Assembly (NCBI GenBank): GCA_041498815.1
Contig: JBGQJC010000008.1
Span: 4,935-68,934 of the forward strand
Direction: 5' to 3'
Length of the DNA stretch: 64,000 nt
Source of the DNA: Alphaproteobacteria bacterium
GTDB taxonomy: Bacteria; Pseudomonadota; Alphaproteobacteria; DATDPM01
Shown: in pieces, positions 29,919-53,609 of the stretch
How the letters are laid out: every line of letters begins with the position of its first letter
Numbering within the stretch: position 1 is the first letter of the stretch
Made by a program: the position numbers and the translations under genes
The notes under the pieces: model-generated
Database searches by the model: none
What the model was told of the DNA's origin: nothing
What the model saw: only the letters and a program-made list of their open reading frames with translations

Positions 29919-30173
29919 CTACAAGTCTTCCTTGTTCCAGATATCCACAGTTGTCCCGCTATTTTTTTTCGTTATTCTCGGAAGCTCCATCGCCTCGGTC
30001 GTTCCGTCGTTGAAGATCTTCACATAGGCCATGACCGCAAGCTGATCCGGGACATTCGCCGAGCCACCGGCTTCGCCGACGTAATAGAGAATTCCCCAAT
30101 GCGGTCGCGCATCTGCGGGTAAGACTGACGTGGAGAACTTGTGAGGAACGAAGGCGGTGTTTGGTGCGGCTAT
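29919..30173 (-). pseudogene. Start-less 84-codon reading frame, possibly a remnant of a second islet gene
   Basis: IAAPNTAFVPHKF...WGILYYVGE...MAYVKIFNDG...IWNKEDL*. No canonical start at the 5' end. Confidence 0.3.
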
Positions 30174-31021
30174 TTAATCAGCCGCGTATCAAGTTCCGCA
30201 AGATCGCTGTAGTGCAGAAGCAGGACGCCGTTCATTGAGGCGAGTTGTTGAGCCGCCGTCGTGTAGCGGCTGTTTGTGACGACTGCCGCATGCTGTGCTT
30301 TCTCGTAGCCCTTGCCAGCAACAGCCTCTTGAACCGCCTTATTCCCCACCGGCTGGTTCCAGAGCTTACATTGGAGAACTACGCGAACGTCGTTTTTCTC
30401 CGCAATGACGTCAACGCCCTGGTCTCTGGCCCTCTTGGTCACCTGTGCTTGCCAGCCGGCGCGGCGAAGCTCGTCCGCACAGAACGCCTCAAACTCGGTT
30501 GCTGTCATCCGGTCCGAGAAGCCCTGGAACGTGGTTGCGGTCTTCGAGGCATCTTCAACACGCCTTCCGATCAATAGCGAGAGGCTCTCGCGTTCGTCTT
30601 CGAGAATGGTCCGCTCCCGATCCGTCAGGTGCGGGGCGATCTGACTGTCGATGAAGTAGGCTATCTCTTTCCTCCAGCCTTCCAACTGAAGCTTGCTGTA
30701 GGCGTCGTATCTGACGAGCTGCGCACGTCTCTTTAACAGCGAAGTCATGTGTCGCTCAACAACGGTCTTGGCCAACTGTGTTAAGCTGCGCCGCGCTTTA
30801 GCTCGACTAAAGACACGGTATAAGCGGACAGAGACGCGATAGAGGTGGTAGATGGTTGCTACCACGACAGCACTAACCAAAAGATTGACGAGCACGCCAC
30901 CCATGTCCAGGGATTGCCGCTGAATGCTCCCGAGCACGGCGAACACAGCGAACACGGCCATGCCCATTAACCCAAATAAAACGTCGTCCGGTGTCGGGAT
31001 GTGTCGTCTGCGGCGAGTCAT
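30170..31021 (-). CDS. Membrane-anchored Mrr-family (type IV-like) restriction endonuclease
   Basis: Two N-terminal hydrophobic helices. Mrr_cat motifs EFEAFC, DQGVD, QCK, VGNKAVQEA, VVTNSRYT. Confidence 0.82.
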   Translation of the reverse strand: MTRRRRHIPTPDDVLFGLMGMAVFAVFAVLGSIQRQSLDMGGVLVNLLVSAVVVATIYHLYRVSVRLYRVFSRAKARRSLTQLAKTVVERHMTSLLKRRAQLVRYDAYSKLQLEGWRKEIAYFIDSQIAPHLTDRERTILEDERESLSLLIGRRVEDASKTATTFQGFSDRMTATEFEAFCADELRRAGWQAQVTKRARDQGVDVIAEKNDVRVVLQCKLWNQPVGNKAVQEAVAGKGYEKAQHAAVVTNSRYTTAAQQLASMNGVLLLHYSDLAELDTRLIK

Positions 31022-42529: not shown

Positions 42530-42922
42530 GTGGCCCGGACCGCATTGATCGTCGATGACGACCCGCCGACGCTCCGTTTGTACCGGCTGCTGCTGGAACA
42601 GGCCGGAATGAATGTGATGGCGGCCAACAACGGGCTCGAAGCCATCCGGCTTGCGGTCGAGCACGGGCCCGACCTCATCATCACCGACGTGCGCCTGCCA
42701 TTGGTCTCCGGGCTCGAGGTGGTGCGCCAGATTCGCCGCCACCCATTGCTCCGCCGTACCGCGACCGTCGTGATCACGGCGGTCGCAACCCCGGAAAACG
42801 AGCAATTGAGCCTGGACGCCGGCTGCGACGCTTATCTCGTCAAGCCGGTGCCGGTGCTGACGTTTTTGGCCGCGGTGCGCCGATGCCTGGCCCAGGAAGA
42901 GTTACGGCGCAAGCAGGCTTGA
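42530..42922 (+). CDS. Single-domain response regulator (DivK/CheY-like)
   Basis: AAGGAG RBS with GTG start. IVDD, TDVRLP, SGLEV, ITA, KP. Confidence 0.85.
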   Translation: MARTALIVDDDPPTLRLYRLLLEQAGMNVMAANNGLEAIRLAVEHGPDLIITDVRLPLVSGLEVVRQIRRHPLLRRTATVVITAVATPENEQLSLDAGCDAYLVKPVPVLTFLAAVRRCLAQEELRRKQA

Positions 42923-42947
42923 GGATGGGTTCCGGGACCATAAAATG

Positions 42948-42979
42948 AAACGGGCGGGACCCATGGCCCCGCCCGTTTT
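42948..42979. terminator. Bidirectional rho-independent terminator between the response regulator and pqqA
   Basis: 11-bp stem AAACGGGCGGG / CCCGCCCGTTT with T-rich tails on both strands. Confidence 0.7.
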
Positions 42980-43008
42980 CCGAATTCTCTGTCGACAGAA
43001 ACCTCGGA

Positions 43009-43086
43009 TTAGACCTCGGCGCAAGCGTAGCTGTTGATCTCGAGGCCGACGCAGATTTCAACGATCTTCGGTGTGGTCCAGGTCAT
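43009..43086 (-). CDS. pqqA: PQQ precursor peptide PqqA (25 aa, orphan, not in ORF track)
   Basis: MTWTTPKIVEICVGLEINSYACAEV*, with E-x-x-x-Y core (EINSY) and W-x-x-P leader. AAAGGAG RBS 8 nt upstream. Confidence 0.88.
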   Translation of the reverse strand: MTWTTPKIVEICVGLEINSYACAEV

Positions 43087-43258
43087 TGCGGTGCTCCTTT
43101 TAGGATACATCGGATTAACGATGGTGCCGATAATGCCCCACCGCCGCTGAACCGATACTGAGCGGCCCGTTCATCTGGCATTCAGGATTCGAACCCCGAT
43201 GGCATGGCGGAAGTTCCCGAAGACTCCGAAAGAACGGTCGCCGATGCGGATATGTATC

Positions 43259-43294
43259 TCGATATAGATCAATAAGTTGATTGATCTATCTCAG
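43259..43294. promoter_or_regulatory. Dyad upstream of pqqA overlapping FNR/FixK-like boxes
   Basis: Perfect 10-bp inverted repeat ATAGATCAAT-N6-ATTGATCTAT (43264-43289). TCGAT-N4-ATCAA at 43259-43272. Confidence 0.45.
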
Positions 43295-43335
43295 ATCATT
43301 TCTGAACCAGACGGGGGTGGGATCCGATCCCGCGG

Positions 43336-45807
43336 CTAAGCGGCTTCGGTCACGAGTTCGCGCAGGCGCCGCGCCAGTTCGTCCTTGCGGAACGGCTTTC
43401 CGATCAGATTGACGGTACGGTCGAAAGTGGTGTTCCGGCCCGTGACATCCTCGGCGTAACCGGACATAAAAAGAATCTTGGCCTCCGGGAATAGGCTCTC
43501 GACCATCTTCGCCACGTCGATCCCACTCATACCTTTCGGCATGATGACATCGGTGAGCAGGAAATCGAGCCGGGCCAAGCCGCGGAGGGCGGCTTTTGCG
43601 GACGGGCCGTCGATCGCGGCGATAACCTGGTATCCGAGCGTGGTCAAATAGCGCACCGCCAGATCGCGCACGTCTGCGTCATCCTCCACCACCAAAACCA
43701 CCTCGCCCTGGCCCTGGTAGGAGACGTGCGGGGCCGAAGTCTCGGCCTTTTTGATCTCGGCCACTTCCGCCTTCGGGAAGTAGAGATGGAAGGTCGTGCC
43801 CCGGCCCAACTCGCTCGTCACCCGGATGTGACCGCCGGATTGTTTTACGAAGCCGTAAACCATGCTGAGGCCGAGCCCGCTCCCCTTGCCGATCTCTTTG
43901 GTCGTGAAGAAAGGCTCGAAGATTCGCTCCATGACGGCTTGGCTCATGCCCACTCCCGTGTCGGTCGCGGTCAGCCTGACGTAGGGCCCCGGCCTGATAT
44001 CCGCATTCGGGCCGCGGGCTTCGTCGCCAAGCACAATATTGGCGGTTTCGACCTGAAGCCGGCCGCCGCATTCCATCGCGTCGCGCGCGTTGACTGCCAG
44101 ATTGATCAACGCCGATTCCATTTGCGCCCGGTCGAGCGCGGCGGGCCACAGATCGGGGCTCAAAACCGCGCGGATTTCAATCGACTCTCCCAGGGTGCGC
44201 CGCAACAGCTGGACCGTGCCTTCAACCAGGCGGTTGAGATCGGTTGGCTCCGGCTGCAGCACCTGTTGCCGGGCGAACGCGACCAGATGAGCCACCAGTT
44301 CCGCCCCGCGTCTCGCCGATTTGAGGGCGGCCGCTAGCATCTCGCGCAACACCTTGTTGTCTTTAACGCCATCCAGAATCATTTCCAGATTCATCTGAAT
44401 GACCGTGAGAAGGTTGTTGAAGTCGTGGGCGATGCCCCCGGTCAATTGCCCGACGACCTCGAGCCGCTGCGCCTCGCGAATCCGTTCCTCCACCAGCCGC
44501 CGCTCGGTGACGTCGCGGGCATTGAAGACGATTGCCGCGACGCCCGGATCGTCCAGGAGGTTCCGCGCGACGGATTCGAGAATGCGCCACGAGCCATCGC
44601 TTCGCCGCAGGCGCAGAACGAGCGCATGGGTTTGCCCCGGCGAAACAGAGAGGCGTGCCAGGGTTTCGCGCGCATGCGACAGATCGTCGGGATGCACGAG
44701 GCCGATAAGATCCGTTCCCATAACGGCGGCGGGCTTTTGTCCGAGCACGCTTTCCAGAGACGGGCTTGCGAAGGTGACCCGTCCGCCGCCGTCGAACAGC
44801 AGAATCACGTCAAGCGCGTTTTCGATGAGGGCGCGGAAACGCCGCTCGCGCCGTTCCAGTACCTGCGCGGCTTGTTGGCGTTCGGAAAGCATGGAGGCGA
44901 CCGCCAAGACCGAAAACACGGTCATGCCGAGGAACACCTGGACCAGCAGGACACGATCCGCCAACTCGTGGCCCGGGAGCGCCGCGATCGGGCCGTCGCC
45001 GGAGATCGTGCGCCATACGGCGATTCCGGAAATTGCCATGCCCGCCGCCGAAGCGCCGAAGACGCCGAAACGGTAGGCCGCCCAAAGCAGAACCGGAAAC
45101 GCGAGGAACAGCGGGAAGAAACTAGGCTGGTAAAAGGCGAACTCGGCGATCGCCGCGGTAACCACCAGCACCGCCGCCCCTTCCGCCGCGCGCGCCCACG
45201 AAGCGGCGGCACGGAAATACGAGCCGGTTGCGGTCAGGAAAGCGGGCGCAATGATCAGCATGCCCATGACATGGGCGATCCACCAGGTTCGCCACACCGC
45301 ATCGAAAGCGGCGCCGGTGAAGAGAGCCAAGAGGCTGGCCGCGATCGTGGCGCCGAGCGCCGGGGCGACTATCCCGGCCAGCGATACGAAGCGCACGCTT
45401 TGGCCGAGATCGGCCAAAGTGACGGCGGGCCCGATGAAGCGCCTGACCAACGCCGCGCCGACGACAACCTCAATCATATCGATCGCGGGCAGCCCAAACA
45501 TGCGGATCAGGCTTTGACCCTCGGAGAGATCGACCGCCGCCTGGGCAACTAGCGCGATGACAACGAAAAGGGTCCAGCGTCGCGGGTTGCTACGCAAAAG
45601 GACCGCAATCAGAAGGGCGTTTGGAGGCCAGAAGGCGGCGACATTCCCCGCCTCCTCGCTGAGCATGTCCCCGCCCCATGCGGCCGCGAATATTCCGAGG
45701 AACAGCAAGCCGCACGGAACGAGCAGCGAGCGCCAAATCCCTCGCTCGGCGTCCGCCGCGGGAAGCTCCGCCGCGCCGCCGTTCTGCGGCATCGCGGTCA
45801 GAAACAT
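43336..45807 (-). CDS. Hybrid sensor kinase MASE1-PAS-HisKA-HATPase-REC
   Basis: N-terminal multi-TM (FWPPNA, WWIAHVMG), PAS, GGIAHDFNNLL, NLAVNARDAM, GSGLGL, C-terminal REC. Confidence 0.88.
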   Translation of the reverse strand: MFLTAMPQNGGAAELPAADAERGIWRSLLVPCGLLFLGIFAAAWGGDMLSEEAGNVAAFWPPNALLIAVLLRSNPRRWTLFVVIALVAQAAVDLSEGQSLIRMFGLPAIDMIEVVVGAALVRRFIGPAVTLADLGQSVRFVSLAGIVAPALGATIAASLLALFTGAAFDAVWRTWWIAHVMGMLIIAPAFLTATGSYFRAAASWARAAEGAAVLVVTAAIAEFAFYQPSFFPLFLAFPVLLWAAYRFGVFGASAAGMAISGIAVWRTISGDGPIAALPGHELADRVLLVQVFLGMTVFSVLAVASMLSERQQAAQVLERRERRFRALIENALDVILLFDGGGRVTFASPSLESVLGQKPAAVMGTDLIGLVHPDDLSHARETLARLSVSPGQTHALVLRLRRSDGSWRILESVARNLLDDPGVAAIVFNARDVTERRLVEERIREAQRLEVVGQLTGGIAHDFNNLLTVIQMNLEMILDGVKDNKVLREMLAAALKSARRGAELVAHLVAFARQQVLQPEPTDLNRLVEGTVQLLRRTLGESIEIRAVLSPDLWPAALDRAQMESALINLAVNARDAMECGGRLQVETANIVLGDEARGPNADIRPGPYVRLTATDTGVGMSQAVMERIFEPFFTTKEIGKGSGLGLSMVYGFVKQSGGHIRVTSELGRGTTFHLYFPKAEVAEIKKAETSAPHVSYQGQGEVVLVVEDDADVRDLAVRYLTTLGYQVIAAIDGPSAKAALRGLARLDFLLTDVIMPKGMSGIDVAKMVESLFPEAKILFMSGYAEDVTGRNTTFDRTVNLIGKPFRKDELARRLRELVTEAA

Positions 45808-45872
45808 GGCGCCTCCTGCCGCCGACGCCGCCCCAAACGCGTCATGGACCGGTCAAACCGCCGCGACATGCG

Positions 45873-47570
45873 TCACATTGCCTGCGGCTGAAACAGGAAA
45901 TCTTCCCATTTGTATTTGTGAATGTGCATCGGCACCTCGGCGAGCGGTCCAACCCGGTCGCCGGCGACATAGCGCACGCCCGCGGCAACCGCCGCCATGA
46001 CCATGCTGGTGGTCTGCACGCCGTGGAGGAAGGCCCAAAGCCTGTGGCGGTTCGCCTCGATAACGAATTGATTGATGCGGGCGATCGCCTCCGCTTCGGG
46101 CATCGGTTCGCGCCGCAAATCGGTGCCGATGGCGTGCAGACCGGTATCGATGAAATTCGCGGGCGTCTTGCCCCGCAAGGCGGTGTTCGCCAACACCGCG
46201 CTGCAGAACGGCTTGAGGGAGTTGACGAGTTCCGACAACCGGCTTTGCGGAACGCCGTCCGGCAGATTCACGAGCTCGATCACCAGGTATTTCCGCATGC
46301 GCTCGGGCAAGCGCTGCGCGATTTCGATGTACACCTCACGATACTTAAGCGTGGCTATGGTTTCGAACTGGACGGAGACCGCCATGAAAATTTGAAAGCG
46401 GTTGCGCTGCAGCTCGTCCAGCATGCACAGCGCAGCTTTGAAGGTTTCAAGATCGAGGCGCGCGACCGCATAGGAATCGGACCGGTCGTCCAGGACCGCA
46501 TAGCCGTAGCGCCGCCCGAATCCGGGAAAGAGGCGCATGGGAACGCAGTAATAGGTGGATAGAAGCTTGTTGGCGACGTCCCATACCGGCCGGTAAACAT
46601 AGGTCATCAAGGCGTTGTCGCGCTCGGCATCCCCGAAAGAGGGTAAATCGTCGACGATCCCCCATAGATCCGTGTCGTCGTGCACAGCCGTCGGCCCCGG
46701 CCGCCGCCGCACCGCAGGGGCCTCGAGAGGGCGCGTCGGCAGATTGGGGGGCATCACATAAGGAGCAGGCGTCGGATTCCCGCCGGCGGCTTTTGCAACG
46801 CGCGCCGAATTTTTGACATGCGCCGGGCGTTGCGGCGGCACGTCGGGCCCGGGCCGAGACGTGCCGGCAGGCACGGCCGCCCGCGCAGCAACCGCCCCGT
46901 CGGCGCCGTCACCCTTGATCGCGCGCGGCGCGGGCGCGCCGGCGGTCGATGGAGTCTTTGCGGGTTCGGGGCTTGGCTTCCCGGGCGTGGCTTCGACCTT
47001 ATCGGCCCGGCTTGCGAGATCGTTCAACAGATTCGGAATCGAGATGTCTTCGAAGACAAGCTGGTCATTCACCCTTCCGACCGCGGTCTTGACGGAAATC
47101 GCCCCGGTTTCCGGGGTTCCCAGGAAATAGGCGCATATGTCGTCGGCAATCTTGGCGCATTTCAGACGAGCGGCATCGGTAGACATCGTCGCAAAGACGA
47201 TCAGGTAGTCGCTTTCCGAATACCGCACATGGACGTCGAGCGCCGTCATGTGCTCGTGAATGATTTTCTCCGCGGCCGAATGCACTTTGTCTTTCATTTT
47301 TGGCCAGCGTGCTCCCATCCGCTCCTGAAGCTTGTCGAGACCGATGATGTTGATCTGACCGTAGGGAAGCGTGCCTTTCTTGGCGACGAGCTCTTGCAGC
47401 CTCTTGCCGAAGCGATCGAACGCCGCCTGATTGGGAATCGCATAAGAGCTAAGCGCAGCTTCCGGCGATGCGGCGGCGCTGCGCCCGGCGCCGCTTTCCG
47501 GGGGCGAATCTCGTTCCTTGTCGGGCGCGCCGTAAAGCCAGCCCCGGATTCGCGAACCGAGCGATGCCAC
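45873..47570 (-). CDS. Degenerate GGDEF-like + Pro/Ala linker + degenerate EAL-like protein
   Basis: GGDEF position reads RYSESDYLIVF. C-terminal YRPVWDV...LVIEL...LHGV...YVAG resembles the EAL fold without EAL/DDFGTG. Confidence 0.6.
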   Translation of the reverse strand: MASLGSRIRGWLYGAPDKERDSPPESGAGRSAAASPEAALSSYAIPNQAAFDRFGKRLQELVAKKGTLPYGQINIIGLDKLQERMGARWPKMKDKVHSAAEKIIHEHMTALDVHVRYSESDYLIVFATMSTDAARLKCAKIADDICAYFLGTPETGAISVKTAVGRVNDQLVFEDISIPNLLNDLASRADKVEATPGKPSPEPAKTPSTAGAPAPRAIKGDGADGAVAARAAVPAGTSRPGPDVPPQRPAHVKNSARVAKAAGGNPTPAPYVMPPNLPTRPLEAPAVRRRPGPTAVHDDTDLWGIVDDLPSFGDAERDNALMTYVYRPVWDVANKLLSTYYCVPMRLFPGFGRRYGYAVLDDRSDSYAVARLDLETFKAALCMLDELQRNRFQIFMAVSVQFETIATLKYREVYIEIAQRLPERMRKYLVIELVNLPDGVPQSRLSELVNSLKPFCSAVLANTALRGKTPANFIDTGLHAIGTDLRREPMPEAEAIARINQFVIEANRHRLWAFLHGVQTTSMVMAAVAAGVRYVAGDRVGPLAEVPMHIHKYKWEDFLFQPQAM

Positions 47571-47668
47571 GCCCTACCCCTCTTTCATCCGATTGGCGCG
47601 GAACGACATGCCGAAACCGATTCCCGCGGCGAGAAAAAGCGGACGCGATGCTATGATGGTGACCGCAC

Positions 47669-47685
47669 GGTTAATGATTCGCTAA
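47669..47685 (-). promoter_or_regulatory. CtrA-like box between divergent signalling genes
   Basis: Minus strand TTAG-N7-TTAACC, one mismatch to consensus. Confidence 0.4.
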
Positions 47686-47811
47686 ATGGTTTGCGCGACA
47701 ATTGAATCGCGTGCGGCAACGTCACCCTAAACTTTCGGATAGGATCGCCACAAGATTTGCAGCACGATCTTCGCGCCGTGGACACGCCTGCGTTTTACGG
47801 AGCCGACGAAA

Positions 47812-48195
47812 TTGGCCGAAATTCTGATCGTTGATGACGACGATTTGGTGCGCCGCGCTTTACGCCACGCGCTCGAAGCGGTCGGTCACACGGTGACCGA
47901 GGCCACGAACGGATTGGAGGCCCTGGCGGAACTCGCGCGGCACCGTCCGGCGCTTGTGGTCACCGATATCTTGATGCCGGAAAAGGAAGGGATCGGGACG
48001 ATCATGGAAATCCGCCGTATTCACGGCGACCTCAAGATCATCGCCATTTCCGGCGGCGGCCGCACCGGTCAAGTCGAATTCCTGACCTACGCCCAACAGG
48101 TCGGTGCCGACCGCGTGATCAAGAAGCCCTTCTCCCGCGAGGAGCTGCTGGGCACGGTCACCGATCTGATCGGCCCCCGCCCCGACCAATCTTGA
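47812..48195 (+). CDS. Single-domain response regulator
   Basis: IVDDD, TDILMP, ISGGG, KPF. TTG start. Confidence 0.88.
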   Translation: MAEILIVDDDDLVRRALRHALEAVGHTVTEATNGLEALAELARHRPALVVTDILMPEKEGIGTIMEIRRIHGDLKIIAISGGGRTGQVEFLTYAQQVGADRVIKKPFSREELLGTVTDLIGPRPDQS

Positions 48196-48605
48196 CCCCG
48201 GCCAAAAATCTTAGCCGTGTATCGTCCGCGACGATGACGTGCGCCGGTATTTGCCTGACCCATCGAATACGTTCGTTCGAATGGTGCCGCTCACGCGGCG
48301 TAAATACATATCCGGGAATGCGACGACCGATGCCAGCGAATCGAAACCTCGGCTCATTCTCTTTTTTTTAACCAAAACAATTTCTAATTCATCTGCACGG
48401 GGGAGAAACGGCGGCGCTGCCGCCGACGTATTGCGGCCCATTTGGCCGGCACCGTGCAGAGCCCGAAGCGCAACCGCGCAATGCCGAACCGCTCCATGCG
48501 GCGGCCGCAAACGGTCCATCGGAATGTTTGCGGCCCAACATCGGCCATGGCGGACCGTTTCAAGAATACGGCGCCGGCGACCGCGAACCGCGGAGCGCCT
48601 GACAT

Positions 48606-50051
48606 ATGCCTATCGCCTTAAAATACGGTGTCGTATATGCGGTCGCGATCGGCCTGCTCGTGCTGTTGGCGCTGGTCGCGCATGACGGCACCGCCCGATT
48701 TAGGCAAGCGTCCGACGCCGCCGATCGCTCGCAAGAGCTGATTAACCAACTCGACGGTCTGCGCGGCGGTTTGATCGATATTGAAACCGGAAGCCGCGGT
48801 TTCGTCATTACCGGCGATCCCAAGTTTCTCGAGCCCTATCAAACCGCTCTTGCCGTGGTTCCCGGACGCTTGGCTGCCATCGATGGCCTGATCGACCGAA
48901 ACACGGTGCAAGGCCAGTACTTCGATGACCTTCGCGACATTGTCCGGCAGCGATTGGACCAGTCGGCCAAAACCATTGCGCTGCGTGGCAGCGCTGGTTT
49001 CGAAGCTGCGGCTGAAGCCGTCAAGAGCGGCGTCGGCAAGCGGCTCATGGACCAAATTCGCGACGCGATCGCGACGATGATCGCGTCCGAAAGGGCTCAT
49101 CTCGTTCAGCGCGACGCGCAAACCGTGGAGTCCTTCAATTACATTAAACGCGTTTCGATCTCCGGCGCAGGTGTTGTATCGGCGTTCATCCTCATCTGCG
49201 GCGGTCTTCTGGTGCGCGGCATGAATCGGCGAATCGGCCAACTTGTCGATGCCGCCGGCAAACTCGGCGCCGGCAAATTCGATCACAGACTCGTTGTGAA
49301 GGGGCAAGATGAAATCGCGGTTTTAGGTCGCGCCTTCAACCAAATGGCGGATCAGTTGCTGGAGCATAAGGATGCTCTCGATTCCTTTGCCTATACCGTG
49401 GCCCACGACCTGCGTGCGCCGCTTCGCTCCATGCAGGGATTCTCCCAGGCCTTGATCGAGGATTGTGCGGAGCAACTGGATGATCAAGGCCGCGATTACG
49501 CCACTCGCGTGATCGCAGCCGCGAGGAAAATGGACGGGCTGATTCAAGATCTTCTTGCGTATAGCCGGATCGGGCGCACGCAGATGGACGTTCAGCGCGT
49601 GCCTCTCGATCGAGTCGTGAACGGCGCCTTGGCGTCGCTTGCCGCGATCATCGACGACACCGGCGCCGAGGTGCACGTCGAGCGGCCGTTGCCTTCCGTG
49701 CGCGCCTTCGGTCCGATGCTGGAACAGGTCGTCACGAACCTTGTGGGCAATGCGGTCAAATTCGCAAAGGCCGGCATGAAGGCCGACGTCCGGGTGTCGG
49801 CGGAGACACGGAACGGCGCAGTGCGCTTGTGGGTCGCGGACAACGGCATCGGCATCGAACCCGACCACCATCAGCGCATCTTCAAGGTATTCGAGCGGCT
49901 ACACGGCACCGAATCCTATCCCGGAACCGGCATCGGGCTCGCCATCGTCCGCAAAGGGATGGAACGCATGGGCGGGCGCAGCGGCGTCGAATCTTCGCCG
50001 GGCCAAGGAAGCCGCTTTTGGATCGAACTGCCGCGGGGAGAAATATCATGA
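48606..50051 (+). CDS. Sensor histidine kinase CHASE3-HAMP-HisKA-HATPase
   Basis: ETGSRGFVITGDPKFLEPY and MDQIR (CHASE3), DEIAVL (HAMP), VAHDLRAPL, GTGIGL. Confidence 0.9.
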   Translation: MPIALKYGVVYAVAIGLLVLLALVAHDGTARFRQASDAADRSQELINQLDGLRGGLIDIETGSRGFVITGDPKFLEPYQTALAVVPGRLAAIDGLIDRNTVQGQYFDDLRDIVRQRLDQSAKTIALRGSAGFEAAAEAVKSGVGKRLMDQIRDAIATMIASERAHLVQRDAQTVESFNYIKRVSISGAGVVSAFILICGGLLVRGMNRRIGQLVDAAGKLGAGKFDHRLVVKGQDEIAVLGRAFNQMADQLLEHKDALDSFAYTVAHDLRAPLRSMQGFSQALIEDCAEQLDDQGRDYATRVIAAARKMDGLIQDLLAYSRIGRTQMDVQRVPLDRVVNGALASLAAIIDDTGAEVHVERPLPSVRAFGPMLEQVVTNLVGNAVKFAKAGMKADVRVSAETRNGAVRLWVADNGIGIEPDHHQRIFKVFERLHGTESYPGTGIGLAIVRKGMERMGGRSGVESSPGQGSRFWIELPRGEIS

Positions 50052-50500
50052 ATCCGGCCGACTGCACCGTCCTGCTCGTTGAAGACAATCCCGACGATGT
50101 TTTATTGACCAACCGGGCGTTCAAACGCGCCAATCTCATCAACCCGATCCAGGTCGTGGACGACGGGGACCGGGCAGTCGCCTATCTTTCCGGCGCGCCG
50201 CCCTTCGACGACCGCGGCCGCTTTCCCCTTCCCGTTCTGATCTTGCTCGATCTCAAGCTTCCGCGCCGCTCGGGATTGGAGGTTCTGAAATGGCTGCGCG
50301 CCGTCCCCGGGTTGAGGCGGCTGCCCGTGGTGGTGCTGACCTCATCCGCCGATTCGGGCGATGTCAACAATGCCTACGACATGGGTGCGAACTCGTATCT
50401 CGTGAAGCCGGTCGGGTTCGACGCGCTCTTCGACATGGTCAAGGTTTTGCAGCCCTATTGGCTCATCTTGAATCAGCAGCCGGCGGTTGTGGGGGCGTGA
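50048..50500 (+). CDS. Single-domain response regulator, Rcp1-like
   Basis: VEDNPDD, LLDLKLP, VVLTSS, GANSYLVKP, YWLILN tail. ATGA overlap with the kinase. Confidence 0.9.
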   Translation: MNPADCTVLLVEDNPDDVLLTNRAFKRANLINPIQVVDDGDRAVAYLSGAPPFDDRGRFPLPVLILLDLKLPRRSGLEVLKWLRAVPGLRRLPVVVLTSSADSGDVNNAYDMGANSYLVKPVGFDALFDMVKVLQPYWLILNQQPAVVGA

Positions 50501-50531
50501 GCATGCCCTGGCCGGATTTGGGGAGGAACCC

Positions 50532-52454
50532 ATGCACGCGCTGCTGATCGACGATAATCCCGACGACCGCGCCTTGGTGAAGCGCGAACTGGCGCATGCC
50601 TTCGATAAGGTCGAGGCGACGGATGTCTTTGACGCGGACGGGCTGAACAAATCGCTGATGCGCGGCGATTTCGATCTGGTCGTCACGGACTATTGCCTTA
50701 TGTGGACCGACGGACTCGAGGTCTTGAAGGCCGTGCGCCGGAAATATCCCCTGCATCCGGTCATCATGTACACGGGAACGGGGAGCGAAGAGATCGCGGT
50801 CGCCGCCATGCAGGCGGGGCTCGACGAATACGTCGTGAAATCACCCGCCAACGTTGCCCAGATTCGGGTGGCGGCGGCCTCCGCGATGCAAAAAGCGGCA
50901 CAGCGGCAGGCCTTGAAAGAGCAGGAAGACCGAACCCGAACAATCCTCGATATCATGGTGGACGCCATCATCACCATCGACGAGCGCGGCCTCGTTCAAT
51001 CCTTCAATCCCGGCGCCGAGCGCATGTTCGGATATGCCGCGGCCGAGGTGATCGGCGAGAACATAAAACTCCTGATGCCGGAGCCCCATTTCAGCCAGCA
51101 TGAACGCTACCTTGCCGATTATCTGAGGACCGGGGAGCGCAAGATCATCGGGATGCGGCGCGAGTTGGAAGGCCGCGCCAAGGACGGCCGTGTTTTCCCG
51201 CTCGAACTTGCCGTCGGCAAAGTGCGCCTCAGTTCGGGCAAGCGCCATTTCATCGGTTCGCTCCGCGATTTGAGCGAACGCACGCGATTGGAGGAGCAGC
51301 TGCGCCGCAGCCAGAAGATGGACGCGCTCGGCCAGCTCACCGGGGGCATCGCCCACGATTTCAACAATCTGCTTACCGTCATCCTCGGAAATCTCGAATT
51401 AGTTGGAGGTAAAGCCGGCGCGGACGCCGAATTGCGCCGCGCCGTCGAGATCGCCATGAGCGCGGCCGACCGGGCGGCAGCCTTGACCGGGCGGCTTCTT
51501 GGCTTTTCCCGGCGTCAGGTGCTGCAGCCCCAATCTCTCGATCTCGCAAGCGTGGTCAACGACATGTCCGAAATGCTCGCACGCACATTGGGCGAGAACG
51601 TCCGAGTGGAAACCGTATGCCCGGCGGACTTGTGGCATGTCATGGCCGACAAGCACGAAATTGAGAATGCCGTCCTCAACCTCGCCATCAACGGCCGGGA
51701 TGCGATGTCGCGCGGCGGTATGATCACGATCGAAACCCAGAACGTGCGCATCGACGCGGACTACGCACGGGAGAATCCCGACGCCGTTGCCGGCGAACAC
51801 GTGATGATTTCGGTCGCCGATACCGGAACCGGCATGCCGCCCGCGGTGTTGGCCCGCGCCTTCGAGCCGTTTTTCACGACCAAGGAAGTCGGCAAGGGGA
51901 CGGGGCTTGGGCTCAGCATGGTGTACGGTTTTGCCCGCCAATCCTCGGGACATGTCAAAATAGAAAGCGAGATCGACAAGGGCACCACGGTCAAATTGTA
52001 TCTTCCCCGCTGCGAGCTGGACCGGTCCCGCGCCGTGCCGGACACTGTAAGCACGGTGGCGAAGCGCAGCGGCGAGACCATTCTGGTGGTCGAGGATGAC
52101 GAGCTCGTGCGCGGCACGGTGATTGCGCAACTGGAACGCCTGGGATACCGGGTGATGGCGGCCAAGGACGGGCCATCGGCCCTGATTATCCTGAACGGCG
52201 GCACGCCGATCGACCTGTTATTCACCGATGTCGTGATGCCGGGCGGGATTAGCGGACGGGAGTTGGCCTGCGAGGCCGTCAGACTACGCCCGCGGCTCAA
52301 GGTCGTGTTCACCTCCGGTTACGACCAGATGCGCAGCAACAGCAAGGAACCCTTGGTCGAACGCGCCGATTTCCTGCCGAAGCCATTCAAGCAGCAGGAA
52401 CTCGCGTGCAAAATCCGCGAGGCCTTAGGCGCCGCGGCCGGCGCCGCGGCATAG
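50532..52454 (+). CDS. Hybrid kinase REC-PAS(FixL-like)-HisKA-HATPase-REC
   Basis: GGAGG RBS. PAS LMPEPHFSQHERY...KIIGMRRELEG...FPLELAVG, GIAHDFNNLL, GTGLGL. Confidence 0.88.
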   Translation: MHALLIDDNPDDRALVKRELAHAFDKVEATDVFDADGLNKSLMRGDFDLVVTDYCLMWTDGLEVLKAVRRKYPLHPVIMYTGTGSEEIAVAAMQAGLDEYVVKSPANVAQIRVAAASAMQKAAQRQALKEQEDRTRTILDIMVDAIITIDERGLVQSFNPGAERMFGYAAAEVIGENIKLLMPEPHFSQHERYLADYLRTGERKIIGMRRELEGRAKDGRVFPLELAVGKVRLSSGKRHFIGSLRDLSERTRLEEQLRRSQKMDALGQLTGGIAHDFNNLLTVILGNLELVGGKAGADAELRRAVEIAMSAADRAAALTGRLLGFSRRQVLQPQSLDLASVVNDMSEMLARTLGENVRVETVCPADLWHVMADKHEIENAVLNLAINGRDAMSRGGMITIETQNVRIDADYARENPDAVAGEHVMISVADTGTGMPPAVLARAFEPFFTTKEVGKGTGLGLSMVYGFARQSSGHVKIESEIDKGTTVKLYLPRCELDRSRAVPDTVSTVAKRSGETILVVEDDELVRGTVIAQLERLGYRVMAAKDGPSALIILNGGTPIDLLFTDVVMPGGISGRELACEAVRLRPRLKVVFTSGYDQMRSNSKEPLVERADFLPKPFKQQELACKIREALGAAAGAAA

Positions 52455-52507
52455 TAGGCGCGGTTGGGCTAAGCACTTCCCGGCGAGCGAATCCGGTCCA
52501 GCGCGCC

Positions 52508-52945
52508 CTATTCGACGGCAAAGACCTTCGGCACGCCGCCGGAAATCACGTAGATCGTGAGCGGAGCGGTCTTTTCCCCGGCCATTCCCGGTGAACCCGC
52601 CGGCATACCCGGTAAGGCAATGCCCTTGATCTCGGGCTTCTGCGCCAGCAACCGGTGGATGACGCCCACCGGAACATGCCCTTCGACCACGTATCCGCCG
52701 ATCAGCACGGTGTGACAGGCGGCAAGGGCATCGGGAACGCCGTATTTCGCCTTGACCGCGGCAAGGTCATCGGTGTCGACGACCGTGACCTGGAACCCGT
52801 TCTTTTTCAGATATTCCACGTAATTTGCGCAGCAGCCGCAGGCGGGGTCCTTGTAGACCGTGGCTTGCCGGGACTCGGCCGTAAACCCGTTGATCGGGGT
52901 CAGTGCCGCGACCAGAAGAATGAACGCCACAATAATTTTCTTCAT
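52508..52945 (-). CDS. DUF411 / CopG-like periplasmic metal-binding protein
   Basis: Signal peptide, YKDPACGCC, ACHT, EGHVP, PGMPAGSPGM. Confidence 0.85.
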   Translation of the reverse strand: MKKIIVAFILLVAALTPINGFTAESRQATVYKDPACGCCANYVEYLKKNGFQVTVVDTDDLAAVKAKYGVPDALAACHTVLIGGYVVEGHVPVGVIHRLLAQKPEIKGIALPGMPAGSPGMAGEKTAPLTIYVISGGVPKVFAVE

Positions 52946-52980
52946 ATTGAACTCCTTCCGAATGCGACGGAATTTTGGCG

Positions 52981-53433
52981 TCATGAGGCGGGCGGCCAGC
53001 CGTGCGTTTCGCGGCGCGCCTCTTTCAGCCAAGCATACAGTGCATCATAGGCCACCATGCCGTGGCGCAACATCTCGTGATCGTCCCGGAATAACACCGA
53101 CAGTCCGAGCGACAGCGCCAAAAGCCCCGCCGCCTCGGGCGCCAAGTCGAGCCGGCCGGTGTCGGCCCCGCGCACGATCACCGCAAGGTCGCGGAGTGCG
53201 GCGTCGTCGATCCGGTATTTTTTGAGAAAGGTATCGAAGCTGCACAGCGCCCCATCGTGGGACAACTCGACACCCGGAATGTCGAAGGGGATGGCGCCGG
53301 CCTCTTCCGCGACCGCCAGGACTCGGTCCGGGGGCACGAACAAAAACTCGGGCGCATCGTCGATGAATCGGGCGATCAGCCAGGGGCAGGCGATGCGGTC
53401 GATCTTCGGACGTTCGCGTGTAACCCACTTCAA
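52981..53433 (-). CDS. Chromate-resistance ChrB-C/ChrF-like protein (no HTH)
   Basis: KWVTRERPKIDRIACPWLIARFID, PFDIPG, CSFD, YDALY. TTG start. Confidence 0.8.
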   Translation of the reverse strand: MKWVTRERPKIDRIACPWLIARFIDDAPEFLFVPPDRVLAVAEEAGAIPFDIPGVELSHDGALCSFDTFLKKYRIDDAALRDLAVIVRGADTGRLDLAPEAAGLLALSLGLSVLFRDDHEMLRHGMVAYDALYAWLKEARRETHGWPPAS

Positions 53434-53445
53434 GGGGCCGACTCT

Positions 53446-53483
53446 CTAACGGTATGAGGTTTGGCTAACGGCATGAGGTTTGG
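53446..53483. repeat. 19-bp tandem direct repeat upstream of the ChrF-like gene
   Basis: ctaacggtatgaggtttgg (53446-53464) and ctaacggcatgaggtttgg (53465-53483), one mismatch. Confidence 0.85.
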
Positions 53484-53532
53484 CGTCCCGGAAATACCGG
53501 GGGCCGCGACGCCCAATTCCCGTTTCCGCAAT

Positions 53533-53609
53533 TGGTCGGAGCGGCGGGATTTGAACCCGCGACCCCCAGACCCCCAGTCTGATGCGCTACCAGGCTGCGC
53601 TACGCTCCG
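53533..53609 (-). tRNA. tRNA-Pro (anticodon GGG)
   Basis: 77 nt, CGGAGCG...CGCTCCG-ACCA. Anticodon loop CT-GGG-GG. Confidence 0.95.

Follow-up and report, generated by a model that had tools for sequence, protein, structure and literature searches.

In PQQ synthesis, the glutamate and tyrosine of an E-x3-Y motif are cross-linked, and their atoms end up in PQQ. The locus described here raises the question of what a gene for such a precursor peptide does when it stands by itself: in an uncultured alphaproteobacterium of sediment and groundwater, we find a 25-codon pqqA alone in a stretch of 64,000 nucleotides (the window, by which we mean the whole stretch of DNA that was analysed). The initial annotation took it for a monocistronic precursor gene whose supply may be regulated separately by the surrounding sensor cluster. 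Our analysis supports a monocistronic precursor as probable and does not support the separate regulation. We propose that this orphan gene is likely a working extra copy of pqqA, expressed as a short RNA of its own, that supplies precursor for PQQ.

A 25-codon pqqA and its surroundings

The window has a G+C content of 64% and is the reverse complement of part of Ga0534154_0000103 (85,027 bp), a contig of a JGI sediment metagenome; the same species is also represented by a fragmented NCBI MAG (GCA_041495085.1) and in many sediment runs. The open reading frame takes up 78 nt of the minus strand, from an ATG at 43086-43084 to a TAA at 43011-43009, and its coordinates and its 25-aa sequence proved to be as first given (Table 1). 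Its product had been called PqqA, and profile searches agree, with 36.7 bits against Pfam PF08042 (cut-off 21.1) and 42.3 bits against the NCBIfam equivalog TIGR02107 (cut-off 20). The translation contains E16-I-N-S-Y20, an E-x-x-x-Y motif that is unvarying in 62 of 62 related copies fetched, both search patterns having demanded these residues, and at 25 codons with its own translation start signal the frame lies within the size range of the family (about 20-40 codons). By these measures of sequence the ORF is a bona fide PqqA, and Glu16 and Tyr20 are the predicted cross-link pair.

The start site is equally well marked. The AAAGGAG ribosome-binding site (RBS) was correctly identified, and a GGAG or GGGAG core stands at the equivalent position in every aligned pqqA copy. 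An alternative ORF of 33 codons, from an in-frame ATG at 43110, was rejected: it is without an RBS and is not kept in relatives. A spacer of 249 bp separates pqqA from the kinase gene upstream, whose stop is at 43336, in keeping with the roughly 250 bp of upstream DNA of its own that the gene had been credited with. Gene callers have left this spot empty in the gene tables of public records, and where a 78-nt gene of this kind is skipped, the cofactor supply for a methanol/ethanol-family dehydrogenase could be misjudged.

At its other end, the gene had been described as running into an immediate terminator (42948-42979). The terminator itself stands, with a hairpin (42978-42948) of 14 pairs, 10 of them G-C, and a T-rich run after it; it is not immediate, in that another hairpin (43008-42979) intervenes after the stop codon. 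Lying between the convergent pqqA and receiver genes, the terminator can be used by both. Taken as a whole, the picture of a stand-alone gene with its own upstream region, RBS and terminator is supported: the upstream region is conserved and the next gene is convergent.

Table 1. Features of the orphan pqqA locus and its immediate neighbours (window coordinates)
Feature	Position	Strand	Remarks
Single-domain response-regulator receiver, 130 aa	42530..42922	+	Convergent; conserved neighbour of orphan pqqA; genomic context
Intrinsic terminator	42940..42978	-	14-bp G+C-rich stem, 3-nt loop, then CATTTTAT
3' UTR hairpin 1 (TCCGAGGTTTCTGTC/GACAGAGAATTCGGA)	42979..43008	-	15+15 nt, begins right after the stop codon
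pqqA coding sequence	43009..43086	-	25 codons + TAA, product MTWTTPKIVEICVGLEINSYACAEV
RBS AAAGGAG	43094..43100	-	7 nt before the ATG, read from sequence
-10-like hexamer CATTAT	43130..43135	-	Putative, from alignments
Upstream element CCTGAATG-ccaga-TGAACGGGCCGCTCAGTATCGGTTCAGCG	43145..43186	-	About 60-100 nt before the ATG
A+T-rich palindrome GATATAGATCAAT-N6-ATTGATCTATCTC	43261..43292	.	13-nt inverted repeat, about 75 nt upstream of the element, in an otherwise G+C-rich spacer
MASE1-PAS-HisKA-HATPase-REC hybrid histidine kinase	43336..45807	-	Upstream; at this place only in the window's lineage; context, not part of the unit

That no other pqq gene is present in the window was borne out by gene tables and Pfam scans of every base: in the whole window and about 10 kb past its right end, neither PqqB, PqqC, PqqD or PqqE nor a PQQ-repeat dehydrogenase was found. 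Beyond the receiver gene follow cutA, rplM, rpsI, argC, a hexapeptide transferase gene and phaC. On the other side of pqqA, and on its strand, come the MASE1-PAS hybrid kinase and, next to it, a protein of 565 aa; further on in this direction lie a receiver, a CHASE3 kinase, another receiver, a PAS hybrid kinase, DUF411, ChrB-C and tRNA-Pro(GGG). The 565-aa protein (45873-47570, minus strand) matches nothing in Pfam or NCBIfam and is 50% identical to the proteins at the same position in two related loci (L031 and L011); by eye it looks like a degenerate signalling protein in which a Pro/Ala-rich linker joins a GGDEF-like N-terminal to an EAL-like C-terminal part. In Rfam searches of the whole window only tRNAs reach gathering scores, and positions 42900-43340 give a single match at chance level (Chloroflexi-1, 20 bits against a cut-off of 80).

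Two further observations concern these surroundings. Inside the MASE1 kinase gene, the depth of DNA runs rises to about 60-70x (44340-44506 and 43920-44411) against about 12x around it, and several of the short contigs that these runs give in the gene skip 146-319 nt; both the depth peak and the skips most likely reflect conserved HisKA/HATPase words common to the kinases of other organisms, and not a rearrangement. Elsewhere in the window, a gene for an Mrr-type restriction endonuclease (Mrr_cat and NA-iREase1 domains; 30170-31021, minus strand) adjoins tRNA-Glu(TTC) and may form a small island.

Conservation of the orphan locus and the search for its expression

Relatives were collected with a degenerate DNA pattern for the peptide core, which returned 45 loci in species-representative genomes, nearly all of them MAGs of uncultured Alphaproteobacteria, and with a stricter pattern, which returned 17 metagenome contigs from a set scanned without the window's own sample. 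The orphan synteny, consisting of pqqA, the convergent receiver, cutA, rplM, rpsI and argC, recurs in at least nine related loci of other assemblies (L031, L011, L037, L060, L066, L069, L070 and L071, with L063 and L068 partial). Operon copies, which have pqqB within about 50-120 nt, are found in L020, L056-L059, L061, L067 and L072 and in more distant Rhizomicrobium and Dongiaceae loci; L067 has a complete pqqABCDE, and all four of its enzymes score over the NCBIfam equivalog cut-offs. A third type of copy, with a peptide beginning MTWNTPK, stands alone elsewhere (L027, L062, L065). Related MAGs carry two or three pqqA copies each, and three pairs of loci (L031 with L020, L069 with L058, and L070 with L072) each combine an orphan with an operon copy from a single MAG or sample.

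Across this clade, 23-24 of the 25 residues of the orphan peptide are unchanged in L031, L011, L037, L060, L066, L069, L063, L070 and L071, while the neighbouring proteins of orphan loci are only 68-86% identical to those of the window. A 32-nt core of pqqA is invariant in 17 of 17 copies compared, none of which contains a frameshift or stop, and even in loci with another gene upstream the leader, RBS and two 3' hairpins persist. Hairpin 1 is kept in all nine orphan loci (9/9), its sole changes being compatible with pairing (G-U to A-U), and the terminator shows one compensatory change of a G-C to an A-U pair among relatives.

This pattern of conservation bears directly on whether the gene is still in use. 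Disuse, whether of a decaying leftover from a duplication or of an ORF that arose by chance, might be expected where no pqq enzyme gene lies near pqqA in the window, where gene finders missed it and where the metatranscriptomes examined show no unambiguous transcript; yet the peptide, RBS, leader and terminator have been kept while housekeeping proteins diverged by 14-32%, the reading frame is intact in every copy compared, and the HMM scores are about twice their cut-offs. Because the peptide, leader, RBS and hairpins are conserved across diverged genomes, the orphan peptide, by this comparison, is under purifying selection and is not a relic, and we regard disuse as close to excluded.

Conservation extends to silent sites. 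At identical residues with degenerate codons, the same codon is used in about 85% of cases in pqqA, against 50-62% in rplM, rpsI, cutA, argC and the receiver gene, a difference that could come from strong codon bias, from gene conversion between copies or from RNA-level constraint. Since both this codon identity and the almost invariant 3' UTR go beyond protein-coding need, they might point to a job other than PQQ supply, in which the peptide would be the substrate of a different maturase or a regulatory peptide, or the transcript would double as a small RNA. We consider such a job very improbable. Gene tables and family scans reveal no radical-SAM enzyme or other maturase nearby, the 565-aa neighbour has by eye the look of a signalling protein and not of a peptide enzyme, and no Rfam family matches at the locus; codon bias from high expression, or gene conversion, would also explain the silent sites; and the orphan peptide is near-identical to those of operon copies, so that PqqD and PqqE should accept it.

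Evidence of expression was sought in metatranscriptomes. Four of these contain pqqA-like contigs, with flanks that belong to other organisms' copies, one of them an operon flank of the L020 type. In a groundwater metatranscriptome (run X25), an exact contig of 164 nt lies over 42835-42997 at a low depth of 4.2; it runs from the last 88 nt of the receiver gene across the terminator into part of hairpin 1, and ends 12 nt short of the pqqA stop codon, where the conserved 3' UTR would branch the assembly graph. It is the only long exact piece among the 43.6 kb of the window compared with that run, and no pieces of rplM or rpsI were found there. The contig is suggestive of transcription at the pqqA locus and, being strandless, is explained equally well by receiver mRNA or by carry-over of DNA.

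A pqqABCDE operon in the same assembly and the proposed role of the orphan

Genes for the processing enzymes were found outside the window. A search with the PqqB of L067, followed by cluster members of its closest matches, led to a PqqB (P0125) that is encoded on Ga0534154_0000154 (70,412 bp), a contig from the JGI assembly that also contains the window; the Logan run in which the window's locus occurs has a contig encoding it too. Two other PqqB candidates (P0003 and P0011) were set aside as coming from other MAGs. Ga0534154_0000154 carries pqqB, pqqC, pqqD and pqqE, and upstream of pqqB a second pqqA (L075; product MAWTTPRIVEICVGLEINSYACAEV) whose peptide differs from that of the orphan at two positions (T2/A2 and K7/R7, orphan/operon). 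On the strand opposite to the pqq genes it encodes a MoxJ-like binding protein, a cytochrome c of the methanol-metabolism type and a PQQ-dependent dehydrogenase of 626 aa in the methanol/ethanol family, which scores 684 bits with TIGR03075 (cut-off 480). At 13221-17047 of L075, pqqABCDE is arranged back to back with this xoxF/mxaF-type dehydrogenase gene, the cytochrome c gene and the MoxJ-like gene. The pqqBCDE genes, further pqqA copy and PQQ dehydrogenase that the initial annotation had proposed to look for in the genome are all on this second contig, which matches the window in composition and depth; and as to its proviso that a genome without pqqE or pqqD would make the orphan a relic or the precursor of another RiPP, both genes are there.

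The link between the two contigs draws on three kinds of evidence. Besides their co-assembly, the tetranucleotide composition of Ga0534154_0000154 correlates with that of the window at r = 0.988, compared with 0.991-0.992 for parts of the window among themselves and 0.90-0.96 for most relatives. Depth had to be compared indirectly: the copies have the pqqA core in common, so that contigs of the Logan assembly graph end within it, and we took the depth of the operon from contigs that overlap the shared core and have the operon flank as a loose end. Such contigs have depths of 12.2 in run X1 (orphan flanks 16.3 and 11.1), 13.8 in X3 (13.4 and 13.4), 29.3 in X7 (32.9 and 34.7) and 13.6 in X6 (orphan flank 9.8). 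Together these data make a link of binning grade, statistical rather than physical, by which the window and Ga0534154_0000154 very probably belong to the same genome; it would hold more than one pqqA, the orphan in the window and the operon copy in L075, with a single enzyme set. Run X1 also contains a 688-nt DNA contig (depth 12.1) that overlaps the pqqA core (43007-43054) with three mismatches and has a different flank; its depth equals that of the orphan and operon contigs, from which the genome may have a third pqqA copy, comparable to L027, L062 and L065.

We propose the following role for the orphan. Its transcript would comprise a leader that starts downstream of CTGAAC-N16-GTTCAG, the 78-nt ORF and a 3' UTR of two hairpins, of which the second is the terminator. 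The translated peptide would be bound by PqqD, and PqqE would cross-link Glu16 to Tyr20, as expected from its family; PqqB, PqqC and a protease would then finish PQQ, with the processing enzymes supplied from Ga0534154_0000154. Because each PQQ molecule uses up one peptide, the extra copy would most plausibly raise or buffer the supply of precursor.

Extra pqqA copies unlinked to the enzyme genes are already well documented, and the orphan belongs to that kind. Methylophilaceae have 3-12 copies with one enzyme set (PMC4109929). In M. extorquens AM1, two further homologues beside pqqABC/DE are offered, in the account that PMC6520949 gives with reference to Toyama and Lidstrom 1998, as the reason why disruption of pqqA spares PQQ synthesis, and the pqqA copies of Methylovorus sp. 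MP688 respond differently to conditions, as far as the work is described there (Ge et al. 2015, cited in PMC6520949). The three copies of Beijerinckiaceae bacterium RH AL1 change in expression together, to differing degrees (PMC10848612).

The orphan resembles the extra copies of these methylotrophs (Methylorubrum extorquens AM1, Methylophilaceae, Methylovorus sp. MP688 and RH AL1) in being a short pqqA apart from pqqBCDE, in a genome that has, here by way of a statistically linked contig, an operon copy, PQQ-dependent alcohol dehydrogenases and a single enzyme set. Unlike them, it stands at a fixed place across an uncultured clade (tRNA-Pro(GGG)...pqqA, receiver, cutA, rplM, rpsI, argC), and carries the upstream element of the operon copy; judged by the loci compared, this fixed position, the element in common with the operon copy and a very conserved 3' UTR are what is specific to the orphan. 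With the operon pqqA of pqqABCDE(F), as in Klebsiella pneumoniae and M. extorquens, it shares the peptide family, the E-x3-Y residues and a hairpin after the gene; it differs in having no pqqB after it, and in having a full terminator that faces a convergent gene in place of an inter-cistronic hairpin. M. extorquens is said to make an abundant short transcript of pqqA only, a result attributed to Ramamoorthi and Lidstrom in 1995. As a dispersed precursor gene that is both clear-cut and conserved, the locus leaves the knowledge of PQQ biosynthesis unchanged; the element that it has in common with the operon copy might serve in a search for the regulator of PQQ synthesis.

Control of the orphan and operon copies

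The element upstream of the orphan consists, in most copies, of a 6-bp inverted repeat, CTGAAC-N16-GTTCAG, with a direct copy, CTGAAYG, just upstream; in the window the left arm reads aTGAAC. Its pattern has one match in the window, where 0 are expected by chance; each of the 19 loci fetched, with orphan and operon copies among them, likewise has a single match, directly before pqqA in every case. In the operon contig from the window's assembly, the core of the element is nearly letter for letter that of the window, and the element was not found elsewhere in 18.8 kb of that contig, including before the dehydrogenase gene. From this distribution we infer an operator or promoter common to all pqqA copies of the clade, which may act as an activator site, a repressor site or an ECF-type promoter. 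Because orphan and operon copies have the element in common, they would probably be switched together, which suggests that they are under common rather than separate control.

Details of the candidate promoter vary between copies. The -10-like hexamer reads CATATT, CATAGT or TAAATT in the other orphan copies and CAAGAT, TAGTAT or TAGGAT in operon copies, and begins 11 nt after GTTCAG, or 12 nt in a few copies that include the window's. An ECF-type promoter would agree with the GAAC-N16-GTT spacing, and less well with a -10 part that reads GGTT or AGTT instead of CGTT. Two other candidates were rejected. A sigma-54 promoter (GG-N10-GC-like, 43126-43141) fits the window, L031, L069 and L065 and fails in L037, L060, L066 and all operon copies; as for a structured RNA leader, its arms never vary, which makes covariation uninformative.

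The sensor cluster, by contrast, is not a constant companion of the orphan. tRNA-Pro(GGG) is separated from the orphan pqqA by about 0.2-0.3 kb in both L069 and L066, by 1 kb in L037 and by 6.5 kb in L011; in the window the gap is 10.4 kb, and signalling genes account for the differences. The variable block spans 43336-53609, from the MASE1 hybrid kinase to ChrB-C, and from a comparison of these loci it looks like a stepwise insertion of about 10 kb beside the tRNA gene. The MASE1 kinase next to pqqA is absent at this position in all syntenic relatives, and the sole conserved signalling neighbour of the orphan is the convergent single-domain receiver.

According to the initial annotation, the surrounding sensor cluster may regulate the orphan separately; the neighbouring two-component genes (MASE1, receiver, CHASE3, PAS) would then control it apart from the operon copy, and precursor supply would answer signals of its own. 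The position of pqqA within a dense block of sensor genes invites this reading, as does the receiver that adjoins it in all syntenic relatives; the -10-like box and A+T-rich upstream patch of orphan copies also differ from those of operon copies, and in Methylovorus the pqqA copies respond to different stimuli, by the description in a later paper (Ge et al. 2015, cited in PMC6520949). We nevertheless judge separate control unlikely: the sensor block ranges from 0 to about 10 kb among relatives, in which the MASE1 kinase is missing at pqqA, family searches detect no DNA-binding output domain in the adjacent signalling proteins, the conserved receiver included, and the main conserved upstream element is identical in kind in orphan and operon copies.

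Common control could be taken a step further. In a more speculative version, a single undescribed element (CTGAAC-N16-GTTCAG with the upstream direct repeat) would drive every pqqA of the clade, and the orphan would be the high-output copy, its 3' UTR and silent sites being under RNA-level selection for stability or processing; we hold this version to be possible and, on balance, doubtful. If it were true, the regulator of PQQ supply in these bacteria could be sought by way of this element.

The A+T-rich palindrome in the spacer is a minor feature of the same region. Its AATCAACTTATTG is a candidate match to the IHF consensus WATCAANNNNTTR, and L031 and L037 have perfect matches to that consensus at the same relative place. 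Other relatives have only A+T-rich patches there; ATCAA/TTGAT words occur in the A+T-rich patch of relatives.
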